This document shows, in pieces, positions 3,212-21,071 of a DNA stretch of 64,000 bases (the stretch's first letter is position 1; each line of letters begins with the position of its first letter). Below the pieces are notes generated by a model. It was not told the origin of the DNA and did not search any database. It was given only the letters and a program-made list of their open reading frames with translations. The stretch is taken from contig JAJCZM010000026.1 in the NCBI GenBank assembly GCA_029262375.1, forward strand, positions 40,198 to 104,197, written 5' to 3'. Both the position numbers and the translations under genes were made by a program. The DNA comes from Deltaproteobacteria bacterium. Its GTDB lineage: Bacteria > Desulfobacterota > Binatia > UBA1149 > SPBQ01.

Positions 3212-4777
3212 TCAGGCGTCGGCCGGCTGATGCGTCTTGTCGAGCAGCGCCTCAACTGTTTTCACGGGCGCGAAGGTATCGAGCGGAACCTCGACGAAGA
3301 CGGTATTCCAATCCGACATCGCTCCGTTCCATAGCCCTGGGCGCTCGAGAGAACGCAGCGGACGCCCGTCCTTCGACTTCTCGACGAGGAATACCGCGTC
3401 GGGATCGACGTGATCGGCCAAGCGACGTAGCTTGCCGTCCGGGCCGCGAAGCGCGCACACGAGATCCACCGGATTGAAATGTGTCGACTGCGTGAGCAGC
3501 GACTGCTGAGCGTCGTCGGCGGGATCGACTTCGCTGGTCTCGACCACCTGCACACTATCGCGTCCGTTGGTGGACACCCAAAACGGTCCACCGCCGGGTT
3601 CGCCCGTGTTAGGCACCATGCCGCAGGCGCGAATCGGACGATCGAGCATTCGCAGCGCGAAGTCGCGGCGTGCACCGCCGTCGGTAAGCCCCCGCGGTGT
3701 GGGAGTGCACAGGCGCTCCGCTAAGAACGCCAGGGCGGCGCCGACCGCTTGATCACCATCGGCCCGCACCGCTTCGCAATGCGCGAAGACTTCCTGTTGT
3801 AGCTCGAGGGTGAGTCCACCAAGGACCTTCTTCCAGAGATAGGTCGGACCTTTGGCGTCATCGGGAACCACGTTGTCGATATTCTTGATGAAGACGACAT
3901 CAGCGTCGATCTCACTGAGATTCTCGATCAACGCACCGTGCCCACCGGGGCGAAACAGAAGCTCGCCCGAACGTTCGCGAAACGGCTTTCCGTCCAGTTC
4001 TACGGCCAGCACGTCGGTCGACGACTTCTGCGCGGAAAATTCGATCTCGTATCGCACGCCGAATTGTTGTTCGTAACGCGCACGCACCTCCGACAGCAGC
4101 GCTTCGAAGCCCGCTCGATGTTCCGGCGATACGGTGAAATGCAGGCGACAGACATCCCCTTCCCCGCGGGCGTACGCGGCCGCTTCGACGAGGTGTTCTT
4201 CGAACGCGGTACGATTGATGTCTCCGTAGCCGTGAAAAGTGAGAAGTGCTTTCGGCAACTCGCCGTAGCCCATGCCTTTGTCGGTAAGTAGATGTTCGAG
4301 TAGGGCGCGTACGTCACCGTCACGCGCGACTTCGAGCACGTCGAGCCCGGCGGCGGCCATGGACGATTGAAGTTGGTCGAAAAAGGCGAAGTTCTCGAGC
4401 CCGTCGAGGAGCTTCAACAGCTCCTTCGCCGCACCGTCACCCGACGCAGCGGCCGTGGCCACTTCAGACCTGCGCACCGGAGCCGCGGCGTAGAGATACG
4501 ATAGCGGCGTCTTGAACATTCGACTGGCTGCGCCCGAAGCCGGCACGAACTTCACCACCTCGCGCGAGGCGATCGCATCGTCGAACAGCGATGCGAGTCT
4601 GTTCTGTTCGGCAGCATCAACGACGGTAATCCCGTCGCCGCGGGTGCACGGCCTGATCAAGCGCGCGAATGCGGGCGGATCGACGTAGAGTTCCAGTTGG
4701 CGATCCACGTCGGAGAGATCGAGCCCGTGGGCTACGATCTCGGCCTTCTCTTCTTCTGTCAGCGAGTGCGGGCGCAT
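3212..4777 (-). CDS. DUF4301-like protein, UDPGP-superfamily nucleotidyltransferase-like fold
   Basis: 521 aa. Gly-rich NTP-binding-like loop VPASGAASRM and a PGGHGAL motif that resembles UDP-sugar pyrophosphorylases. The family assignment is from memory, not from a search. Confidence 0.4.
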   Translation of the reverse strand: MRPHSLTEEEKAEIVAHGLDLSDVDRQLELYVDPPAFARLIRPCTRGDGITVVDAAEQNRLASLFDDAIASREVVKFVPASGAASRMFKTPLSYLYAAAPVRRSEVATAAASGDGAAKELLKLLDGLENFAFFDQLQSSMAAAGLDVLEVARDGDVRALLEHLLTDKGMGYGELPKALLTFHGYGDINRTAFEEHLVEAAAYARGEGDVCRLHFTVSPEHRAGFEALLSEVRARYEQQFGVRYEIEFSAQKSSTDVLAVELDGKPFRERSGELLFRPGGHGALIENLSEIDADVVFIKNIDNVVPDDAKGPTYLWKKVLGGLTLELQQEVFAHCEAVRADGDQAVGAALAFLAERLCTPTPRGLTDGGARRDFALRMLDRPIRACGMVPNTGEPGGGPFWVSTNGRDSVQVVETSEVDPADDAQQSLLTQSTHFNPVDLVCALRGPDGKLRRLADHVDPDAVFLVEKSKDGRPLRSLERPGLWNGAMSDWNTVFVEVPLDTFAPVKTVEALLDKTHQPADA

Positions 4778-4884
4778 GGAATCATGCTAGCACAGCGGAT
4801 GGCCGGCTTGCCGCGCGCATCGCCGGGGCAATGCGCGGGCAGCCGAGAGGCGTGCTATCGAGCGACCTAGGCGGCTCGAGTGAT

Positions 4885-5199
4885 CTAGGCGGCGTTGACG
4901 AGGGTTTCGAGCTGACCGTCTTCGTACATCGAGCGAATGATGTCGCAACCACCCACGAACTCGCCGCGCACGTAGAGCTGGGGGATTGTCGGCCATTCGC
5001 TGAACTGCTTGATGCCTTCGCGTAGCTCGGGATCCTGCAGCACGTCGTAGGTCTGGAACGGCTTGCCCGTTCGCTTGAGGATCTCGGAGGTAACCTGCGA
5101 GAAGCCGCACTGCGGTAGCGCGGGCGTGCCCTTCATATAGAGGACGATATCGTCCTGCTCGACCTGCTCTTTGATGCGCTGAAATATGTCTTGTGCCAC
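4885..5199 (-). CDS. grxD: Grx4-family monothiol glutaredoxin
   Basis: CGFS active site (PQCGFSQ), 104 aa, conserved C-terminal WPTIPQLYV. Confidence 0.9.
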   Translation of the reverse strand: MAQDIFQRIKEQVEQDDIVLYMKGTPALPQCGFSQVTSEILKRTGKPFQTYDVLQDPELREGIKQFSEWPTIPQLYVRGEFVGGCDIIRSMYEDGQLETLVNAA

Positions 5200-5211
5200 G
5201 ATAGTGAACTC

Positions 5212-5493
5212 CTAGTCGATCTTGGTGAGCCCGTCGCGATGTTGATCGGGCGACAGCGCGTTGATCATCAACGCGTGGATCTCGCTCTGCATCGCGTCGC
5301 CGAGGGCGTCGTATACCAGCCTATGGCGTTGGACGAGAGACTTTCCCTCGAAAGACGCAGCTACAACAGTTAGTTCGAAGTGATCACCGGTCCCGTGCAG
5401 GTCTTTGGCATCCGCTTGGGCATCCGGGATCCCGGACTCGATCATTTGTTTGAGGGTCTCTGCGTTCATGGGCTTTCCATCCAGAAGCAACAA
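5212..5493 (-). CDS. bolA: BolA-family protein (partner of monothiol Grx)
   Basis: 93 aa, BolA-like fold signature (HFELTVVAASFEGKSLVQRHRLVYDAL), adjacent to and co-directional with grxD. Confidence 0.8.
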   Translation of the reverse strand: MLLLDGKPMNAETLKQMIESGIPDAQADAKDLHGTGDHFELTVVAASFEGKSLVQRHRLVYDALGDAMQSEIHALMINALSPDQHRDGLTKID

Positions 5494-5530
5494 GGTCGGT
5501 CATTTCGGCCGAATTTTCAAGGCGTTGGCA

Positions 5531-7000
5531 CTAATCGATGTAGCCGAGGGCACGTAGCGCTTCCTGTTCACGCTCCCGCTCGAGCTCCTGCTCCCGCTCG
5601 CCTTGCTCGGCCATACGGGTCTTCGGCCCCTGTTGGCGCGGCAAAGGATGGTCGGCACGCCAGCGCGCCAGCCGTGCCGATAGCGCCTCGAGAATCTTCG
5701 GCTCCGACCCGACGAGGCTCACCTCTTCGAGGGGGTCGCGCTCGAGATGATACAACTCGCCCACGTCTTCGCCCTCGTTCTCGATGAGCTTCCACGGGTA
5801 GTCGACGATGGCTGTCTCAGGGTGGCGTAGGTCTTCGCGAAACGTCGAATTGAACAAGCGACGTTCGAGATAGAAGGCCCGCGGCTCCGGTTCTTCCCGG
5901 CTGCGCAGCGAAGTCGCGACGCTGCGACCGTCTGTTTCGTAGCGGCGCCCCGGATCCACCAGGTCCATCACTGTGGGCGCGAGATCGACCAACGACAGCG
6001 GCGTCTCGAGCACGCTCGGTTCCAGTTGCCCCTCCCACACCGTGAGCCACGGCACGCGCACGGTTTCGTTGAACAACAGGACACCGTGCCCGAAGCCGAT
6101 CAGGTCGCTCGACCGGCGTTCGGCAAGCGACTCGCCGTGATCGGAAACAATCAGCACCAACGGCGATCCCTGCGGAGCCGCGTCGTAGGCACCTTGGACG
6201 ATTCTCTGAACGGCGCGATCACTGGCGGCGATCTCGCCGTCATACAACGACCGTGCGCGCAGGATCTCCTGTTCCTTCAATTGCTCGGCGGACTCGAGGA
6301 AACGATCCAGTTCGCTGTAGCGACGGTAATCGCGCGTGGGCCGCTTGATGAACTTGTCGCGATAGGGTTGCGCCGGTTCGTAGGGTAGGTGCGGCTCCCA
6401 AAGGTGTACCCAGAGGAACCAACGCTCCCCCTCGCGCTCGTCGAGCCACTCGCTCGCGTGCCGCAACACCTCGCCGGCGCTTCGCCATTTCTTGGGAGCA
6501 CGCGGCGCGTTCGTGTCGTCGAAGCCGGCGATATGCCGCAGTTCAGGGTCGAGCCCAATCCGGGCGGTAATGGCAGCGGTTCGGTAGCCCCGCTCCTGCA
6601 GAAAAGTCGCCAACGTGGGAGCGTCGGCATCGAGTCGGCGCGCGGCATTGCGCATGATTCCGTGCTTGCGCGGGTACTGCCCGGTCAAGATCGACGCGTG
6701 CGACGGATCCGTGGTCGGCATGACCGCGAACGCGTTTTCCATACGGACCCCGAGCTTGGAAAAGCGTTTGAGGAAGGGCGTCGTCGGTCGCTTGTAACCG
6801 TAGGCCGATAGACGATCCGCGCGTGTCGTGTCGATCGAGACCAGCAAGATCTTCGATGGCGCGTTGCCGGCGTCGAAACGCGAACACCCTTGCGTCAGAA
6901 AGATCGCCGGCAAGACCACCGACAAGACCGTCGATAAAACCACCAACTGGACGACCGATCTCGACCGATCCCCAAATCTTTGGATGAACTGTCGGCGCAT
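5531..7000 (-). CDS. sulfatase-like hydrolase/transferase (alkaline phosphatase superfamily), membrane anchored
   Basis: LLVSIDTTRADRLSAYGY and VSDHGESL motifs. N-terminal hydrophobic anchor. No CxPxR formylglycine motif, so probably not a true sulfatase. Start chosen at MRRQF; the ORF continues open to 7234. C-terminal tail ...LRALGYID. Confidence 0.7.
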   Translation of the reverse strand: MRRQFIQRFGDRSRSVVQLVVLSTVLSVVLPAIFLTQGCSRFDAGNAPSKILLVSIDTTRADRLSAYGYKRPTTPFLKRFSKLGVRMENAFAVMPTTDPSHASILTGQYPRKHGIMRNAARRLDADAPTLATFLQERGYRTAAITARIGLDPELRHIAGFDDTNAPRAPKKWRSAGEVLRHASEWLDEREGERWFLWVHLWEPHLPYEPAQPYRDKFIKRPTRDYRRYSELDRFLESAEQLKEQEILRARSLYDGEIAASDRAVQRIVQGAYDAAPQGSPLVLIVSDHGESLAERRSSDLIGFGHGVLLFNETVRVPWLTVWEGQLEPSVLETPLSLVDLAPTVMDLVDPGRRYETDGRSVATSLRSREEPEPRAFYLERRLFNSTFREDLRHPETAIVDYPWKLIENEGEDVGELYHLERDPLEEVSLVGSEPKILEALSARLARWRADHPLPRQQGPKTRMAEQGEREQELEREREQEALRALGYID

Positions 7001-17106: not shown

Positions 17107-17916
17107 TCAGACTTTCAGATCCACACTGATCGGACAGTGGTCCGATCCAAGGACATCCATGTGGATGGCCGCACCTTTGACCTGCTTCATCAGCTCTTTG
17201 TTGACGAAGTGGTAGTCGATACGCCACCCGACATTGCGCTCGCGCGCCCCCGCACGATAGGTCCACCAGGAATACTCGCGCTCAGGGGGCTCGAGGTTTT
17301 CGACCGTCTTCGCCGGATGAAAGTGGCGGTAGGTATCGACGTAGCCGGCATCGACGAACTTCTGCAGCGTCTCACGCTCGATCGGTAGAAACCCCGTCAC
17401 TTTTTCGTTTTCTTTCGGTCGCGCGAGATCGATCGGAGCGAGCGCAGTATTCCAATCGCCCGAGACGATGAGGTTTTTTCCTTCAGCGCGCTCCTCTTCG
17501 AGCACTTCGAGCAGCGTTTCGTAGAACTCCAACTTGAATGCGAGCCGTTCGGGATCAGGACCGTCCTCGCGCTGGCGACCGTTGGGGAAGTAAATGTTGT
17601 AGAGAGTGAAATCGCCGTGCTCAGTGACGAGCACACGCCCCTCATCGCGCTCGAAGGGAACCCCCTTGGTGACGAACATGGGCTCGGCCAGGCTCAGGGT
17701 CGCAACGCCGCTATAGCCTTTGCGCTGCGCTGAGTGCCACGAGGCGTGGTATCCGAGATCGGCTATCGCGGCGCGCGCGGCTTCGGGAACCTGTTCCTCC
17801 AATGCTTTGGTTTCCTGCAGGCAGACGACGTCGGGACGCGCTTCTTCCAGCCATTCGAGAAAATTCTTTTTGAGAGCGGCGCGGACACCGTTGACGTTCC
17901 AGGAAACAATCCTCAT
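17107..17916 (-). CDS. xthA: exodeoxyribonuclease III
   Basis: MRIVSWNVNG N-terminus, WRIDY and SDHCP C-terminal motifs, 269 aa. Confidence 0.9.
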   Translation of the reverse strand: MRIVSWNVNGVRAALKKNFLEWLEEARPDVVCLQETKALEEQVPEAARAAIADLGYHASWHSAQRKGYSGVATLSLAEPMFVTKGVPFERDEGRVLVTEHGDFTLYNIYFPNGRQREDGPDPERLAFKLEFYETLLEVLEEERAEGKNLIVSGDWNTALAPIDLARPKENEKVTGFLPIERETLQKFVDAGYVDTYRHFHPAKTVENLEPPEREYSWWTYRAGARERNVGWRIDYHFVNKELMKQVKGAAIHMDVLGSDHCPISVDLKV

Positions 17917-18455
17917 TGGGCGACGAGTCTCTCCACGATCCGGCTTGCCGCGTCGCGCGCAAGAGTTTGGATCTGTTCAGTGGTCAGAATGGCCACGGGA
18001 TGTGCGACCCAGACGGGGTTGTAGTCAGGCATACCGAGAAGGCGCGACTGCTCTTCGGACTCGTCGGTAAACGCATCGGTACCGATGTTCACGGTCGGAA
18101 TGCCTTTCTTCTCGAATCGAATCACGTCGTGCACACTGCACGACACGCACGATCCTCAATCGGCGAGTGCTTCGATCACTGCGTCGCTCACCTCGGTAAT
18201 CTCGTCGACGAGATCGGCAGGGGCGGGGCGGGTGAACGTGGGCTTTTGCACACGCGAAACGATCGCACCGTGCTCCGACGTCAAGACTTGCTCGAGTGCA
18301 TCGAGGAATTCCGCCGACTTCGGTTTCGAGATCGACAGCAACGACACGCGTTTGCCGTGGATTGAATCCAATCGAGGCGCCGGCGGATGCGGGTCCATCA
18401 CAGATTCGTCAAAAGGGCTTACCAGGTCTTCCATACTCTCACTCCTGCTTCTCAC
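17913..18455 (-). CDS. UGSC-family selenoprotein (single gene read through the in-frame TGA at 18156-18158 as selenocysteine)
   Basis: The two track ORFs 18156-18455 and 17913-18146 are in the same frame and separated only by a TGA. The local sequence encodes ...EALAD-U-G-S-C-V-S-C-S-V-HDVIRF..., i.e. the U-G-S-C motif. A SECIS-like hairpin lies 11 nt downstream. The GTG start overlaps the upstream gene's stop (GTGA). Confidence 0.7.
18126..18144 (-). ncRNA. SECIS-like stem-loop (cis element within mRNA) 11 nt 3' of the in-frame UGA
   Basis: Minus-sense GUCGUGCA-GUG-UGCACGAC forms a perfect 8-bp stem. The apical loop contains G-U, as in bacterial SECIS elements. The spacing to the UGA matches the fdhF-type rule of about 11 nt. 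Confidence 0.5.
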
Positions 18456-20017
18456 GCTTCGACGACGACCTGGGTCGTGATCTCAGATCCCAATCCGAAG
18501 CCCACCCAAGGTGGCAAAATTTCCGAGAAACGGCCAGCCGGGCCGCCCGCCACGAGCACATGGATCTGCTCGGGACTCGACCATTTCGTCGCGATGTCGT
18601 CTTCCCCCATGAACGCCATGAAAGGACTTCGCTCGCCGGCGGTAATGTCGCCGACGCGAACGGACGCGATATCGAAAATTCGCTGGGCGACTTCCGCTTT
18701 CGACCATCCGGCATCGGCGAACATGCGGGCGTGCTCTTGGCACAGAACGAACACCGTTTCTGCGGCGATCGGAAATACGGTCGGTGAGAACACTGCAGCA
18801 CCGGCCAAACCAATCGTGGTCACGACGTCCTCGACACGTTGGCTGTAGTGATCGGACACGGTAAACGGAGAGTCGCCAACGTACGCGGTCACGGTACTGA
18901 CGTCTGCACTGAAGCCTCGCGTGACGGAATACGGCTCCCACGGGCTCGCTTCCTCGTTCTCAGCAAAACAGAACGAGATCTTTCCCGGCTGCCCCATGGT
19001 CGATCGATCAAGCTTCGGCGGCTTGCCCATCCCGGTAAGCCCGCTCATCAAACGAACCGCGCGTCCGATGGTCGCGTTCGCACGATTCCAGCCACCCATA
19101 CAATTGATCCCGGAGTTCATCCCGATGCGCGCGCGGACCGGCCCGTTGACCCACAAGACGATGCCCGACGTGTGGGTCGTATTCGTCATCCCATGCAGGT
19201 TGAACGACGGGTTGAGTACGGCCTCGGCGCCGGCGCGCACAACCGGGAAATAACTGGGATGACAGCCCGCGAGTACCGCGCAAGACGCCAGGCGTTCGAG
19301 CGTGAGTTCGCCCATGCCGGGTGGTACCGGTCCGAGACTCAGGCTCGGATCTCGCCCGTCGAGCATCGCATCGACACGCTCACGGGTCGGCGCAGTGACG
19401 GGTAGCCCATCGGTCCATCCGCGCTCGAATAGATCTTCCATGAGATCGAAGTCGGTCGCCGGCGGCGGCGAAGCCCAGAGAGATGGATCGAGCGCGCTCT
19501 TCGACGCGCATCCGGGCTTCATGCGCGGAGGCTCGTCGGCTAACGCGACGGCTTTCACTCCGGCCGCTCGCGCCGCTGCTTGCGCGATCTCGTTGAAGTC
19601 GTCGGTGGACCAACCTTCGACCGCGCGCTCAACGACGCCCGAATCGTCTATCCAGTAGGCCGTAGGAACCGTCGCGACATCGAAGGCCGACGATACCGCG
19701 TACGGCTCGCCCTCGACCAGCGCCGTAAACTCGGCTTTTGCGCGGCGCATCGTGCGCTCGGTGGTTACGCGATCGTTCTGATGGATCGCGACGATCGACG
19801 TTCCCGCCGCCCGCAAGCCGTCCGCGATCGTCTGCAACCGCGCGAGCGTCATCCGACTGGTCGGACAATCCTCTTCGACGAAAAGTAGCAGAACGGCGCC
19901 GTCGGCAAGCAGCGCCGCAAGATCGATCGTGTTGCCGTCGGTAGCTACGAGAGAGAAATCCGGAGCCTTCACCTTGAGTTTGAGCACGTCGCTTTTGTTC
20001 GGCCTGGACGACAACAT
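18452..20017 (-). CDS. peroxiredoxin-like (AhpC/TSA fold, CPTS motif) domain fused to an uncharacterised ~370-aa domain; translationally coupled to the UGSC selenoprotein
   Basis: Start chosen at MLSSRPNK; the track ORF extends to 20206 with a TTG start. KAPDFSL...FVEEDCPTS resembles the Prx PxDF...VCPTE signature. The C-terminal domain is unrecognised. Its stop overlaps the start of the downstream selenoprotein gene. Confidence 0.6.
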   Translation of the reverse strand: MLSSRPNKSDVLKLKVKAPDFSLVATDGNTIDLAALLADGAVLLLFVEEDCPTSRMTLARLQTIADGLRAAGTSIVAIHQNDRVTTERTMRRAKAEFTALVEGEPYAVSSAFDVATVPTAYWIDDSGVVERAVEGWSTDDFNEIAQAAARAAGVKAVALADEPPRMKPGCASKSALDPSLWASPPPATDFDLMEDLFERGWTDGLPVTAPTRERVDAMLDGRDPSLSLGPVPPGMGELTLERLASCAVLAGCHPSYFPVVRAGAEAVLNPSFNLHGMTNTTHTSGIVLWVNGPVRARIGMNSGINCMGGWNRANATIGRAVRLMSGLTGMGKPPKLDRSTMGQPGKISFCFAENEEASPWEPYSVTRGFSADVSTVTAYVGDSPFTVSDHYSQRVEDVVTTIGLAGAAVFSPTVFPIAAETVFVLCQEHARMFADAGWSKAEVAQRIFDIASVRVGDITAGERSPFMAFMGEDDIATKWSSPEQIHVLVAGGPAGRFSEILPPWVGFGLGSEITTQVVVEA

Positions 20018-20084
20018 GTCAAGCCGGCGCTGGGTGTAACAACATCTGTTGCTGCGCAGGACGCGCACTGTATTCTTGTCAGCG

Positions 20085-21071
20085 ATGGGCACGCTGATTC
20101 TGACGAGGGCGCAAGTCGCCGACTTGCTGGAAACCGAGGAAGTGGTTGAAGCTGTGGAGGTCGCCTTTGCGCGCCATGGCAGCGGATCGACGCGGATGCC
20201 GCCCAAGGTCTACCTACCGCTGCCCGAACACGCCGGCGACTTTCGCGCGATGCCGGTCTACTTCCCTGCCATCGACGGCACGGCCGCTTCCGCCGGCGTC
20301 AAATGGATAAACGCGCATCCCGAGAACCCCGCCCGCCATGGGCTGCCGTCCGTACTCGGCGTGTTCATTCTGAGCGATCCCGAGACGGGCCGCCCACTGG
20401 CGGTCATGGACGCGACCGAACTGACGGCCGCTCGCACCGGTGCCGCCGCTGCGGTCGCAACCAAATACTTGGCACCGCCCGGCAGCGACACGTTGACGCT
20501 GGTCGGTTGCGGAGCGCAGGCTCCCGCCGTGTTGGCGGCACACCTGGTAGTCATGAAACCGAAAGAGGTTCGCCTAGTAGATCGCGACGCAGCAGCCGTT
20601 CAGCGCATCGTCGCAGCATTCCCGGATCTCGCCTGTCGATCGGTATCGCTGGAAGAAGGCATGGCAGCGGATGTCGTGTGCACGATGACGCCGTCTCGCT
20701 CGGGGTTCATCGATCATGCGATGTTGTCGGGTGCGACACACATCAATGCGATGGGCGCCGACGCTCCCGGCAAGCAAGAACTCGATGCGGAGATCCTGCG
20801 CGATGCACGCGTATTTCTCGACGACATGGATCAGGCATCCAAAAGCGGCGAGGTGAACGTCGCTCTCGATAGCGGACTCATCACAATGGACGACCTGGCG
20901 GGAACTCTCGGAGAAGTCGTCGCGGGCAAGATCGTCGGTCGAGCGGAGGCCGCCACCACGGTCTTCGATTCCACTGGATTGGCCGTTCAGGACCTCGCGG
21001 TCGCCGATCGCATCTACGAAAAGGCGCGAATCGCGAAATGCGGCATCGAGGTGGATCTCGTCGGGGTCTGA
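20085..21071 (+). CDS. ornithine cyclodeaminase/mu-crystallin family protein
   Basis: Rossmann GCGAQA motif and OCD/mu-crystallin-like overall layout. It is divergent from the Prx-fusion gene. Confidence 0.8.
   Translation: MGTLILTRAQVADLLETEEVVEAVEVAFARHGSGSTRMPPKVYLPLPEHAGDFRAMPVYFPAIDGTAASAGVKWINAHPENPARHGLPSVLGVFILSDPETGRPLAVMDATELTAARTGAAAAVATKYLAPPGSDTLTLVGCGAQAPAVLAAHLVVMKPKEVRLVDRDAAAVQRIVAAFPDLACRSVSLEEGMAADVVCTMTPSRSGFIDHAMLSGATHINAMGADAPGKQELDAEILRDARVFLDDMDQASKSGEVNVALDSGLITMDDLAGTLGEVVAGKIVGRAEAATTVFDSTGLAVQDLAVADRIYEKARIAKCGIEVDLVGV

Follow-up and report, generated by a model that had tools for sequence, protein, structure and literature searches.

Genes and features at the locus

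Three genes of a local operon lie on the minus strand of the window, that is, the whole stretch of 64,000 nucleotides that was analysed: gene A, which encodes a redoxin domain joined by a linker to a further domain (here called X); gene B, which encodes a selenoprotein of the UGSC family; and an exonuclease III-family gene. Their features, in window positions, are as follows.

18452..20017, minus strand: gene A, encoding a 521-aa protein in which a Cys-bearing linker joins a redoxin domain to domain X (from the open reading frame and its translation)
19625..19969, minus strand: thioredoxin-fold redoxin domain, residues 17-131, with active-site CPTS (Cys51 codon at 19865-19867)
19463..19540, minus strand: linker, residues 160-185, containing KPGC (Cys170 codon at 19508-19510)
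18455..19462, minus strand: domain X, residues 186-521 (Cys252 codon at 19262-19264, Cys350 codon at 18968-18970)
18442..18446, minus strand: AGGAG, Shine-Dalgarno-like, 7 nt upstream of the gene B ATG, read from the sequence
17913..18434, minus strand: gene B, encoding a selenoprotein of the UGSC family that has 173 aa if started at the ATG; an alternative GTG start at 18455 overlaps the gene A stop
18156..18158, minus strand: in-frame TGA, the selenocysteine (Sec) codon (residue 93), in the motif AD-U-GSC-V-S-C
18126..18144, minus strand: SECIS-like hairpin, GUCGUGCA-GUG-UGCACGAC, beginning 12 nt past the UGA (minimum free energy fold, z -1.4)
17107..17916, minus strand: exonuclease III-family gene, the third of the local operon, whose ATG overlaps the UGSC stop (ATGA)

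Gene A runs from an ATG at 20017 to a TGA stop at 18452-18454. An earlier reading of this DNA, made from the sequence alone (the sequence-only reading), had delimited the same frame; its coordinates were reproduced, and a 521-aa protein identical to the product is present in public data (P0001). Homologues with 80% and 76% identity have nearly equal lengths, 521 and 523 aa, and full-length homologues reach down to 45% identity. Thousands of database entries are called 'peroxiredoxin' on the N-terminal domain alone.

Gene B clearly belongs to the UGSC family. It scores above the thresholds of PF24696 (151.8 bits, cut-off 25, E = 2.7e-44) and NF041046 (135.2 bits, cut-off 125), contains the UGSC motif with its in-frame TGA, and has the hairpin behind it. 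The motif proved to be UxxCxxC, and not CxxU-like as first described. In 72 of 73 genome-derived loci, one of them being L001, the contig of the window itself, and in all 80 metagenome loci, a TGA stands at the equivalent site; among the related UGSC genes examined, the count is 151 of 152. In 35 loci the hairpin is conserved, with six predicted pairs kept nearly throughout (one broken cell) and one pair showing a compensatory change; because it overlaps coding constraint, this conservation is weak independent evidence. Sequence and profile searches of gene B against the PDB gave only insignificant Rossmann-like echoes, and neither tRNA genes, tRNA-Sec included, nor selA or selB homologues were found within the window.

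The GTGA overlap described earlier between the two genes is present (GTG at 18453-18455, TGA at 18452-18454). It does not settle the start of gene B, since an ATG preceded by the Shine-Dalgarno-like sequence lies at 18432-18434, and gene calling on the public contig took it as the start; either start is possible. As this ATG sits 17 nt downstream of the overlap, translational coupling through the overlap is demoted from a proof to a possibility. Among 73 related loci, however, the spacing between the two genes has a median of 17 nt and an ATGA or GTGA overlap occurs in 24, so tight co-expression is a trait of the family.

The exonuclease III-family gene stands outside the conserved cassette: of 67 related loci, only 2 have an Exo_endo_phos gene as the next one downstream. 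All-against-all clustering of open reading frames and Pfam scans of the nearest neighbours yielded no conserved third gene, and thus the X-UGSC cassette is self-contained. One apparent cluster of 79 loci consisted of antisense shadow frames and represents no real conserved gene. The Pfam scans also revealed no conserved metabolic neighbour among the nearest genes. Some cassettes lie amid genes for CoA-transferase, acyl-CoA dehydrogenase and acyl-CoA ligase.

The N-terminal redoxin domain

Residues 17-130 of the gene A product match Pfam AhpC-TSA (PF00578) with an E-value of 7e-13 and 49 bits against a curated cut-off of 26, which bears out the earlier assignment to the AhpC/TSA-type redoxins. 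The accompanying description as thiol-peroxidase-like is not supported. In peroxiredoxins the peroxidatic cysteine sits in a PxxxT/SxxC motif. This motif is absent from the gene A redoxin, where the corresponding sequence, LLLFVEEDCPTS, has Leu at -7 and Glu at -3, and the top matches in a structure search were DsbE and ResA. The family consensus around the active site is EECPTC/S in related loci; the fourth position is Cys in 57 of 69 redoxin-bearing genome-derived loci, whereas the window has CPTS and hence no CxxC active site. The domain is nearer to ResA, TlpA and DsbE than to peroxiredoxins.

Although the thioredoxin fold of TlpA, ResA and DsbE is the most similar one, the gene A product differs from these proteins in several respects. 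Neither a signal peptide nor a membrane anchor is seen in its N-terminus (MLSSRPNKSDVLKLKVKAPDF), which has no hydrophobic segment as judged by eye, and the redoxin is fused to a cytoplasmic-looking domain. Its motif is the monothiol CPTS, and its scores of about 35 bits fall far below the NCBIfam cut-offs of 170-300 (35.5 bits against 170 for ResA; 35.3 bits against 300 for WAxxUGC_long). From the peroxiredoxins (AhpC/TSA, BCP subfamily) it is set apart by the missing PxxxT/SxxC motif, by the family consensus CPTC and by being optional within the X-UGSC cassette. Many such cassettes have no redoxin, or have TrxB in its place, and therefore the redoxin cannot be the catalytic core.

The linker and domain X

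The redoxin is followed by a linker across which pLDDT drops to 53-78 in the model of the full-length gene A product. The linker motif [KR]PGC[GAS]S occurs in all 71 related loci alignable at that position, and its Cys is kept in every redoxin-fused form. Stand-alone X proteins start downstream of the linker.

The sequence-only reading had placed here an unrecognized domain of ~370 aa; that it is uncharacterized stands, and its size is corrected to ~335 aa (residues 186-521) after a linker of ~30 aa. Searches with the gene A sequence gave no match to domain X in Pfam, NCBIfam or PDB sequences, 54 relatives scanned singly had no Pfam match at all, and a profile of 148 sequences had none in the PDB. 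No relative of its fold is detectable in the PDB, and the HMM search that had been suggested as a check matched it to no Pfam or NCBIfam family. The X family comprises 4,508 clusters at 50% identity and occurs in more than 598 species genomes.

Its conserved motifs are GWTDGLPVxPPT, AGC(252)xPxY, RANxTIGRA, PGKxxFC(350)xAENE, SPW, EH(429) and GGxAGRxS, among which no cofactor- or substrate-binding signature could be recognized. C252, C350 and H429 are invariant in all 81 loci. The Cys/His-rich stretches that had looked conserved in the sequence-only reading are only partly so: C252 is invariant and RANxTIGRA is conserved, whereas C246 is specific to a clade and C306 (GINC) is not conserved, being Ala in most relatives. 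The clade whose X gained C246 and H390 is also the one to which the monothiol CPTS is confined (12 of 12 genome loci), and it holds 74 of the 76 CPTS homologues in databases, although the loci behind this correlation are phylogenetically non-independent. The combination seen most often, in 49 loci, is CPTC together with N246 and Q390; there is also an intermediate one.

Pairing and fusion of domain X with UGSC

Starting from X motifs, a UGSC homologue was found directly downstream on the same strand in 72 of 80 loci from species-representative genomes; three of the eight exceptions end at a contig edge, and stand-alone X without a nearby UGSC gene was recognized in five loci, of Rokubacteria and Methylomirabilota. 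Starting from the UGSC motif, X lies directly upstream in 66 of 80 metagenome loci. Thirteen of the others have less than 400 nt of upstream sequence, and one (L137) keeps only the C-terminal tail of X. Proteins with two X domains in tandem have no adjacent UGSC, and together with the five X-only loci they show that X can occur without UGSC in cis.

Among 148 family representatives, four kinds of fusion exist, namely UGSC-X, X-UGSC, redoxin-X and X-Pyr_redox_2. Fusion of X to UGSC occurs in many lineages; many open reading frames of the UGSC-X kind begin just past the TGA, while those of the X-UGSC kind stop at it. Stand-alone X genes adjoin UGSC too, in both orders. Cys-type fusions retain CGSCxSW, which is a CxxC core as expected of a redox dithiol. 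The X-flavoprotein fusion P0208 contains a TrxB-type CAVC motif, and its gene comes after a split UGSC gene.

The pairing spans Actinomycetota, Alpha-, Beta- and Gammaproteobacteria, Myxococcota, Binatia, Acidobacteriota, Gemmatimonadota and Spirochaetota. Among cultured bacteria, at least Pseudonocardia bannensis DSM 45300 has the cassette. The dedicated, co-expressed pair proposed from this single locus is hence recovered across genomes, through UGSC adjacency from both sides, short spacing and fusions, and the conserved partner is X. Far from being a common enzyme family without UGSC co-occurrence, X is unannotated and pairs with UGSC in essentially every informative locus.

Proposed function

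The observed gene pairing, fusions, residue conservation and Sec retention are best accommodated, with a probability of roughly 60%, if the products of genes A and B together make up a single cytoplasmic thiol/selenol oxidoreductase of two parts, in which X is the obligate partner of UGSC and is probably substrate-binding or catalytic. From these data we infer a self-contained thiol/selenol redox relay, in which the two proteins would form a physical complex, electrons would travel in the order and direction given below, and the substrate would be a small molecule or a protein. Reducing equivalents would enter via the N-terminal thioredoxin-fold domain at Cys51 in CPTS (CPTC in most relatives); in one lineage a fused TrxB-like NAD(P)H flavoprotein replaces the redoxin. 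They would then pass through the invariant linker Cys170 and/or the cysteines of X, of which C252 and C350 are universal and C246 is clade-specific. In this way the UxxC(xxC) selenol of UGSC may be kept reduced, and it would in turn reduce a putative substrate bound on X. The fusion of X with a TrxB-like flavoprotein (CAVC) in one lineage strengthens the case for such a relay, although the redoxin could instead be a regulatory or protective add-on and not the electron donor.

X might alternatively be an enzyme with non-redox chemistry that UGSC and the redoxin merely regulate or protect, for example by redox switching of its cysteines. Its wealth of conserved Arg, Lys and Gly-rich motifs (RANxTIGRA, PGK, GGxAGRxS) suggests an anionic ligand, UGSC is absent in cis from some X genes, and acyl-CoA-related genes of the kinds named above surround some cassettes. 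These metabolic neighbours are not conserved, however; Sec is retained in 151 of 152 cases, which points to a catalytic rather than a regulatory role, and covalent fusion in both orders with near-obligate adjacency would be unusual for a regulator. We consider this alternative unlikely.

About equally unlikely is a Sec-ligated metalloenzyme in place of a relay, with UGSC (UxxCxxC..HD) and C252, C350, E428 and H429 of X jointly ligating an Fe-S cluster or another metal. The UxxCxxC spacing does resemble the ferredoxin-type CxxCxxC, a His and an Asp are conserved after the UGSC motif, and X contributes invariant Cys, Cys, His and Glu residues. The structural matches, however, were not significant. 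Cys-type UGSC-X fusions have Trp for the third Cys (CGSCxSW) and one paralogue has CGAS, so that a three-ligand site is not conserved. In addition, the fusion partners that recur, a thioredoxin fold and TrxB, have disulfides and selenenylsulfides as their targets rather than metal clusters.

Still less probable is a 1-Cys peroxiredoxin that reduces peroxides, with UGSC and X as its dedicated resolving or recycling partners. The absent peroxidatic motif, the DsbE and ResA structural matches, the thioredoxin-type CPTC of most relatives and the loss or TrxB replacement of the redoxin in many cassettes all speak against it. That the adjacency has no functional link, being a local operon accident or a split-ORF annotation artefact, is hardly credible: it has in its favour nothing except that the sequence-only reading rested on one locus, and it is refuted by the pairing counts from the X side (72/80) and the UGSC side (66/80), which cover many phyla, and by the existence of fusions.

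A bolder reading, which we put forward tentatively and at somewhat less than even odds, is that X and UGSC constitute a previously undescribed selenoenzyme class. In it, X would have a fold for which no relative has been solved and would act as the subunit that binds the substrate or carries out catalysis; the UGSC selenol, recycled by a tethered module of the thioredoxin-fold or TrxB type, would serve a reduction that sulfur performs inefficiently. If true, one of the most abundant orphan selenoprotein families of aquatic and soil bacteria would acquire a partner and a path towards its function.

Comparison with known systems

UGSC has been on record as an orphan family since 2007 (Zhang & Gladyshev 2007/2008; PMC1976440, PMC2398784), and it has been reported in Hyphomonas neptunium. 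In the Global Ocean Sampling (GOS) data it ranks in the top five selenoprotein families by abundance, with 255 Sec against 21 Cys forms, a ratio among the highest in the family table (PMC2398784). The 2008 paper also mentions UGSC fused to a conserved domain with a conserved Cys, 'Unknown_1', which is probably our domain X, and thus the X-UGSC system is not wholly new. The statement of the sequence-only reading that this is not a characterized system holds insofar as literature searches found no functional study of UGSC and a 2026 review still lists the family as functionally uncharacterized (PMC13188914); it needs qualification by the UGSC-'Unknown_1' fusion of 2008 (PMC2398784). In the searchable text of papers, nothing was found that describes a near-obligate cassette of two genes, an X-TrxB fusion or the joining of a redoxin to X.

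Gene B shares with the UGSC family (PF24696, NF041046) the motif, the in-frame TGA and the hairpin, whereas X is absent from Pfam and NCBIfam. UGSC gains a near-obligate partner domain, and what this domain is tethered to varies with the lineage: a thioredoxin fold, thioredoxin reductase or UGSC itself. The orphan becomes a defined two-component system open to experiment, and X merits its own profile model as a new domain family.

Natural fusions of thioredoxin reductase with a client or carrier are exemplified by the NTRC-type TrxR-Trx and by AhpF. In these, as in X-TrxB (P0208) and redoxin-X, an electron donor is tethered to its acceptor; the difference is that the acceptor here, domain X, is one without known fold or function.

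A parallel in organization is offered by glycine and D-proline reductase (GrdA, GrdB, PrdB), in which, as in X-UGSC, a UxxC(xxC) selenoprotein works beside a larger non-Sec partner. The GrdB motif is UxxCxxC, and the enzyme is linked to electrons from thioredoxin and thioredoxin reductase (PMC13188914); in the X family, a thioredoxin-fold or TrxB-like domain is fused to X in different lineages, and a similar electron transfer may be supposed. A very high Sec:Cys ratio in GOS is common to UGSC and to the glycine/D-proline reductase families (PMC2398784). On the other hand, gene B has no match to GRDB (PF07355) at E ≤ 1, the UxxCxxC spacing alone being common to both (PMC13188914), X likewise fails to match the Gly_reductase family at this threshold, and no homologues of GrdA, GrdC/GrdD or the pyruvoyl proprotein GrdE/PrdA were found in the cassette or among the neighbours scanned. 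The likeness, drawn by analogy, is one of organization and not of membership, and the hosts differ as well: those of X-UGSC are mostly aerobic soil and marine heterotrophs, whereas glycine and D-proline reductases belong to amino-acid-fermenting anaerobes.

Gene organization in the window

Gene A, established from its open reading frame and translation, and its downstream neighbor gene B lie on the minus strand, flanked by two further genes:

20017 to 18452-18454, minus: gene A, 521 aa (ATG to TGA), encoding a redoxin, a linker and domain X (residues ~186-521)
Downstream of gene A, minus: gene B, UGSC-family selenoprotein (PF24696, E = 2.7e-44; NF041046, 135 bits against a cut-off of 125)
18156-18158, minus: in-frame TGA (Sec codon) of gene B, within AD-U-GSC-V-S-C
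17107-17916, minus: exonuclease III (ExoIII)-family gene (Exo_endo_phos), its ATG overlapping the UGSC stop (ATGA at 17913-17916)
20049-21071, plus: ornithine cyclodeaminase/mu-crystallin family gene, divergent from gene A

An identical 521-aa protein is held in public data, and a database search returned full-length gene A homologues from 80% to ~45% identity; together with the translation and the two family matches, this bears out the two genes proposed in the sequence-only reading. The CxxU-like motif of that reading gives way to a UxxC type. The overlap it reported between the gene A stop and a GTG start of gene B is real, but the start needs correcting: an ATG 17 nt downstream of the GTG is preceded by AGGAG with ideal spacing, and was picked by the public contig's gene caller. 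Among 73 related loci, the spacing between the two genes has a median of 17 nt, with ATGA/GTGA overlaps in 24 and a 13-nt overlap in about ten, and tight co-expression is thus a family property, whichever start gene B uses.

TGA is retained in 72 of the 73 genome-derived loci (the window's own contig included) and in all 80 metagenome loci. The conserved hairpin after the UGA overlaps coding constraint, which limits its value as independent evidence.

Pairing of domain X with UGSC

UGSC was found directly downstream, on the same strand, in 72 of 80 genome loci collected through X. The other eight comprise three that end at a contig edge and five stand-alone X genes (Rokubacteria and Methylomirabilota), so that X can occur without UGSC in cis:

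L022, 5884-7050; also L028, L039, L043 and L069: stand-alone X gene without UGSC in the fetched flanks

In L022, mreB/mreC-like genes flank the X gene on one side and a DEAD-box helicase gene on the other. When metagenomes were searched from the UGSC side, by a motif with the Sec position left free, X lay directly upstream in 66 of 80 loci; 13 of the remaining 14 are without upstream sequence, and one keeps the C-terminal tail of X. Stand-alone X genes adjoin UGSC in both orders. Pairing from both sides, together with the fusions described below, confirms the dedicated gene pair that had been suggested, and the gene-neighborhood comparison proposed with it found the partner conserved beside UGSC in genomes and metagenomes.

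The X family and its architectures

The family search proposed for the C-terminal domain left it uncharacterized: the window's X gave no match in Pfam, NCBIfam or PDB sequences, 54 diverse stand-alone relatives scanned one by one gave no family or structure match, and a 148-sequence X profile gave none in the PDB. The family comprises 4,508 clusters (50% identity, E ≤ 1e-3), 912 of them at E ≤ 1e-30, and among the matches listed it occurs in at least 598 GTDB species genomes. Its hosts are Actinomycetota, Alpha-, Beta- and Gammaproteobacteria, Myxococcota, Binatia, Rokubacteria, Methylomirabilota, Acidobacteriota, Gemmatimonadota, Spirochaetota and Nitrospirales, and databases name X-bearing proteins 'peroxiredoxin', 'redoxin domain-containing' or 'hypothetical'. 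The motifs DGLPxxPPT, AGC(252)xP, RANxTIGRA, PGK...C(350)xAENE, SPW, EH(429) and GGxAGRxS are conserved X-wide. Conserved cysteines, noted earlier in Cys/His-rich stretches, do exist, but which cysteines matter needs correcting: the universal ones in X are C252 and C350.

Five architectures (UGSC-X, X-UGSC, redoxin-X, X-X and X-Pyr_redox_2) were recognized among 148 family representatives. Many fusion ORFs start or stop exactly at TGA, and these are thus Sec-type fusions. An X-flavoprotein fusion, with the TrxB redox motif CAVC, is encoded directly after a UGSC gene. One contig (L084) carries two UGSC-X paralogues (241-2085 and 3903-5573), at least one and probably both of Cys type, CGAS replacing UGSC in P0277; they represent a divergent form of the system that lacks Sec. 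Tandem proteins also exist:

L167, 5001-7154; L168, 1176-3329: X-X proteins P0272/P0142, 717 aa

Both repeats keep the AGC and CxxE(S/D)EE cysteines. No UGSC lies next to these two genes, that of L167 following an SBP_bac_5 solute-binding protein gene, and they may represent a UGSC-independent branch.

Neighboring genes

Comparison of neighbors in the related loci revealed no conserved third gene. The commonest are selB/selA upstream (8-12 loci) and HhH-GPD DNA glycosylases downstream (5 of 67 loci); AIRS-domain (SelD-like) genes lie downstream in two.

L021, L027, L032, L036, L040, L048, L049, L057, L062, L064, L065 and L072: selA and selB directly upstream, same strand, around positions 2.4-5.9 kb of each locus
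L165, 6621-7868; L166, 410-1666; L082, 1661-4598: X and UGSC cassettes among acyl-CoA-type genes

The selA/selB-linked redoxin-X and UGSC cassettes belong to 11-12 proteobacterial and Acidobacteriota genomes, which suggests that UGSC is a principal client of the Sec machinery there. Acyl-CoA metabolism genes are scattered near cassettes; those around L165, L166 and L082 (CoA-transferase III, MaoC-like dehydratase, acyl-CoA dehydrogenase, AMP-dependent ligase and TctC transporter) may indicate an organic-acid or CoA-thioester context, a pattern that is not general.

The ATGA overlap makes redoxin-X, UGSC and ExoIII a local operon, a feature of the window and not of the family: ExoIII is the downstream neighbor in 2 of 67 loci. 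With the glycosylases and an Ogt-type methyltransferase upstream in 2 of 74, DNA-repair genes recur weakly near the cassette. The divergent ornithine cyclodeaminase gene, not found across the family, is shared with L002 (contig CAXQPB010000052.1), the closest genome-collection relative among the matches listed (58% identity), which has the same cyclodeaminase-cassette-ExoIII order. L002 is labeled a Nitrosopumilus (archaeal) MAG; because the remaining matches listed are all bacterial, the contig is possibly mis-binned.

A proposed electron path

The N-terminal domain of gene A, taken for peroxidase-like in the sequence-only reading, is not convincing as a peroxidase and is a thioredoxin-type disulfide-exchange domain, monothiol in the window's clade; of that interpretation as a whole, the dedicated pair stands and the peroxidase-like and CxxU assignments do not. 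The ~30-residue linker bears [KR]PGC[GAS]S (Cys170), invariant in every redoxin-fused form among the alignable related loci and absent from stand-alone X proteins. The second redoxin cysteine is lost (CPTS) only where X has acquired H390 and a cysteine at position 246 (C246), six residues before the invariant C252, and an intermediate form (CPTC with C246 and H390) exists. A relay rewired between the redoxin site and the cysteine site of X would fit this pattern, a correlation that is not phylogenetically independent.

X recurs with three kinds of partner: a UxxC protein containing Sec, a CxxC domain of thioredoxin fold and a flavoprotein resembling TrxB. All are components of dithiol/selenol electron-transfer chains, from which we infer an NAD(P)H-fed path that would end on X. 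Electrons would enter from NAD(P)H via a cellular or fused TrxB and pass to the redoxin and Cys170; the cysteines of X and the selenenylsulfide of UGSC would receive them next, and the UGSC selenol would deliver them to a putative substrate on X. Metal ligation by UGSC and X is less favored than redox chemistry, since the motif kept in Cys-type UGSC-X fusions, CGSCxSW, preserves no more than the CxxC core.

Comparison with known systems

UGSC proteins have been on record since 2007-2008 as abundant selenoproteins without an assigned function (PMC1976440, PMC2398784) and were still uncharacterized in reviews of 2022 and 2026 (PMC9312934, PMC13188914). The 2008 paper mentions UGSC fused to a conserved 'Unknown_1' domain (PMC2398784), which is probably X. 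In the literature searched, we found no description of the near-obligate cassette, of the redoxin-X and X-TrxB architectures, or of the X family's size, absence from Pfam and NCBIfam and lack of a fold relative. The interest is moderately high, because pairing with X makes an old orphan selenoprotein family experimentally tractable.

Gene A differs from classical TlpA/ResA in having no signal peptide, and its product is thus presumably cytoplasmic. The closest organizational analogy for X and UGSC is glycine or D-proline reductase, in which the UxxCxxC selenoprotein B uses thioredoxin-supplied electrons (PMC13188914), with no detectable homology of X or UGSC to GrdB, PrdB, GrdE or PrdA. We class X and UGSC with the thioredoxin-linked selenoprotein redox systems, as a new variant, and put the probability that they constitute a genuinely new selenoenzyme class at about 0.4, which is substantial.
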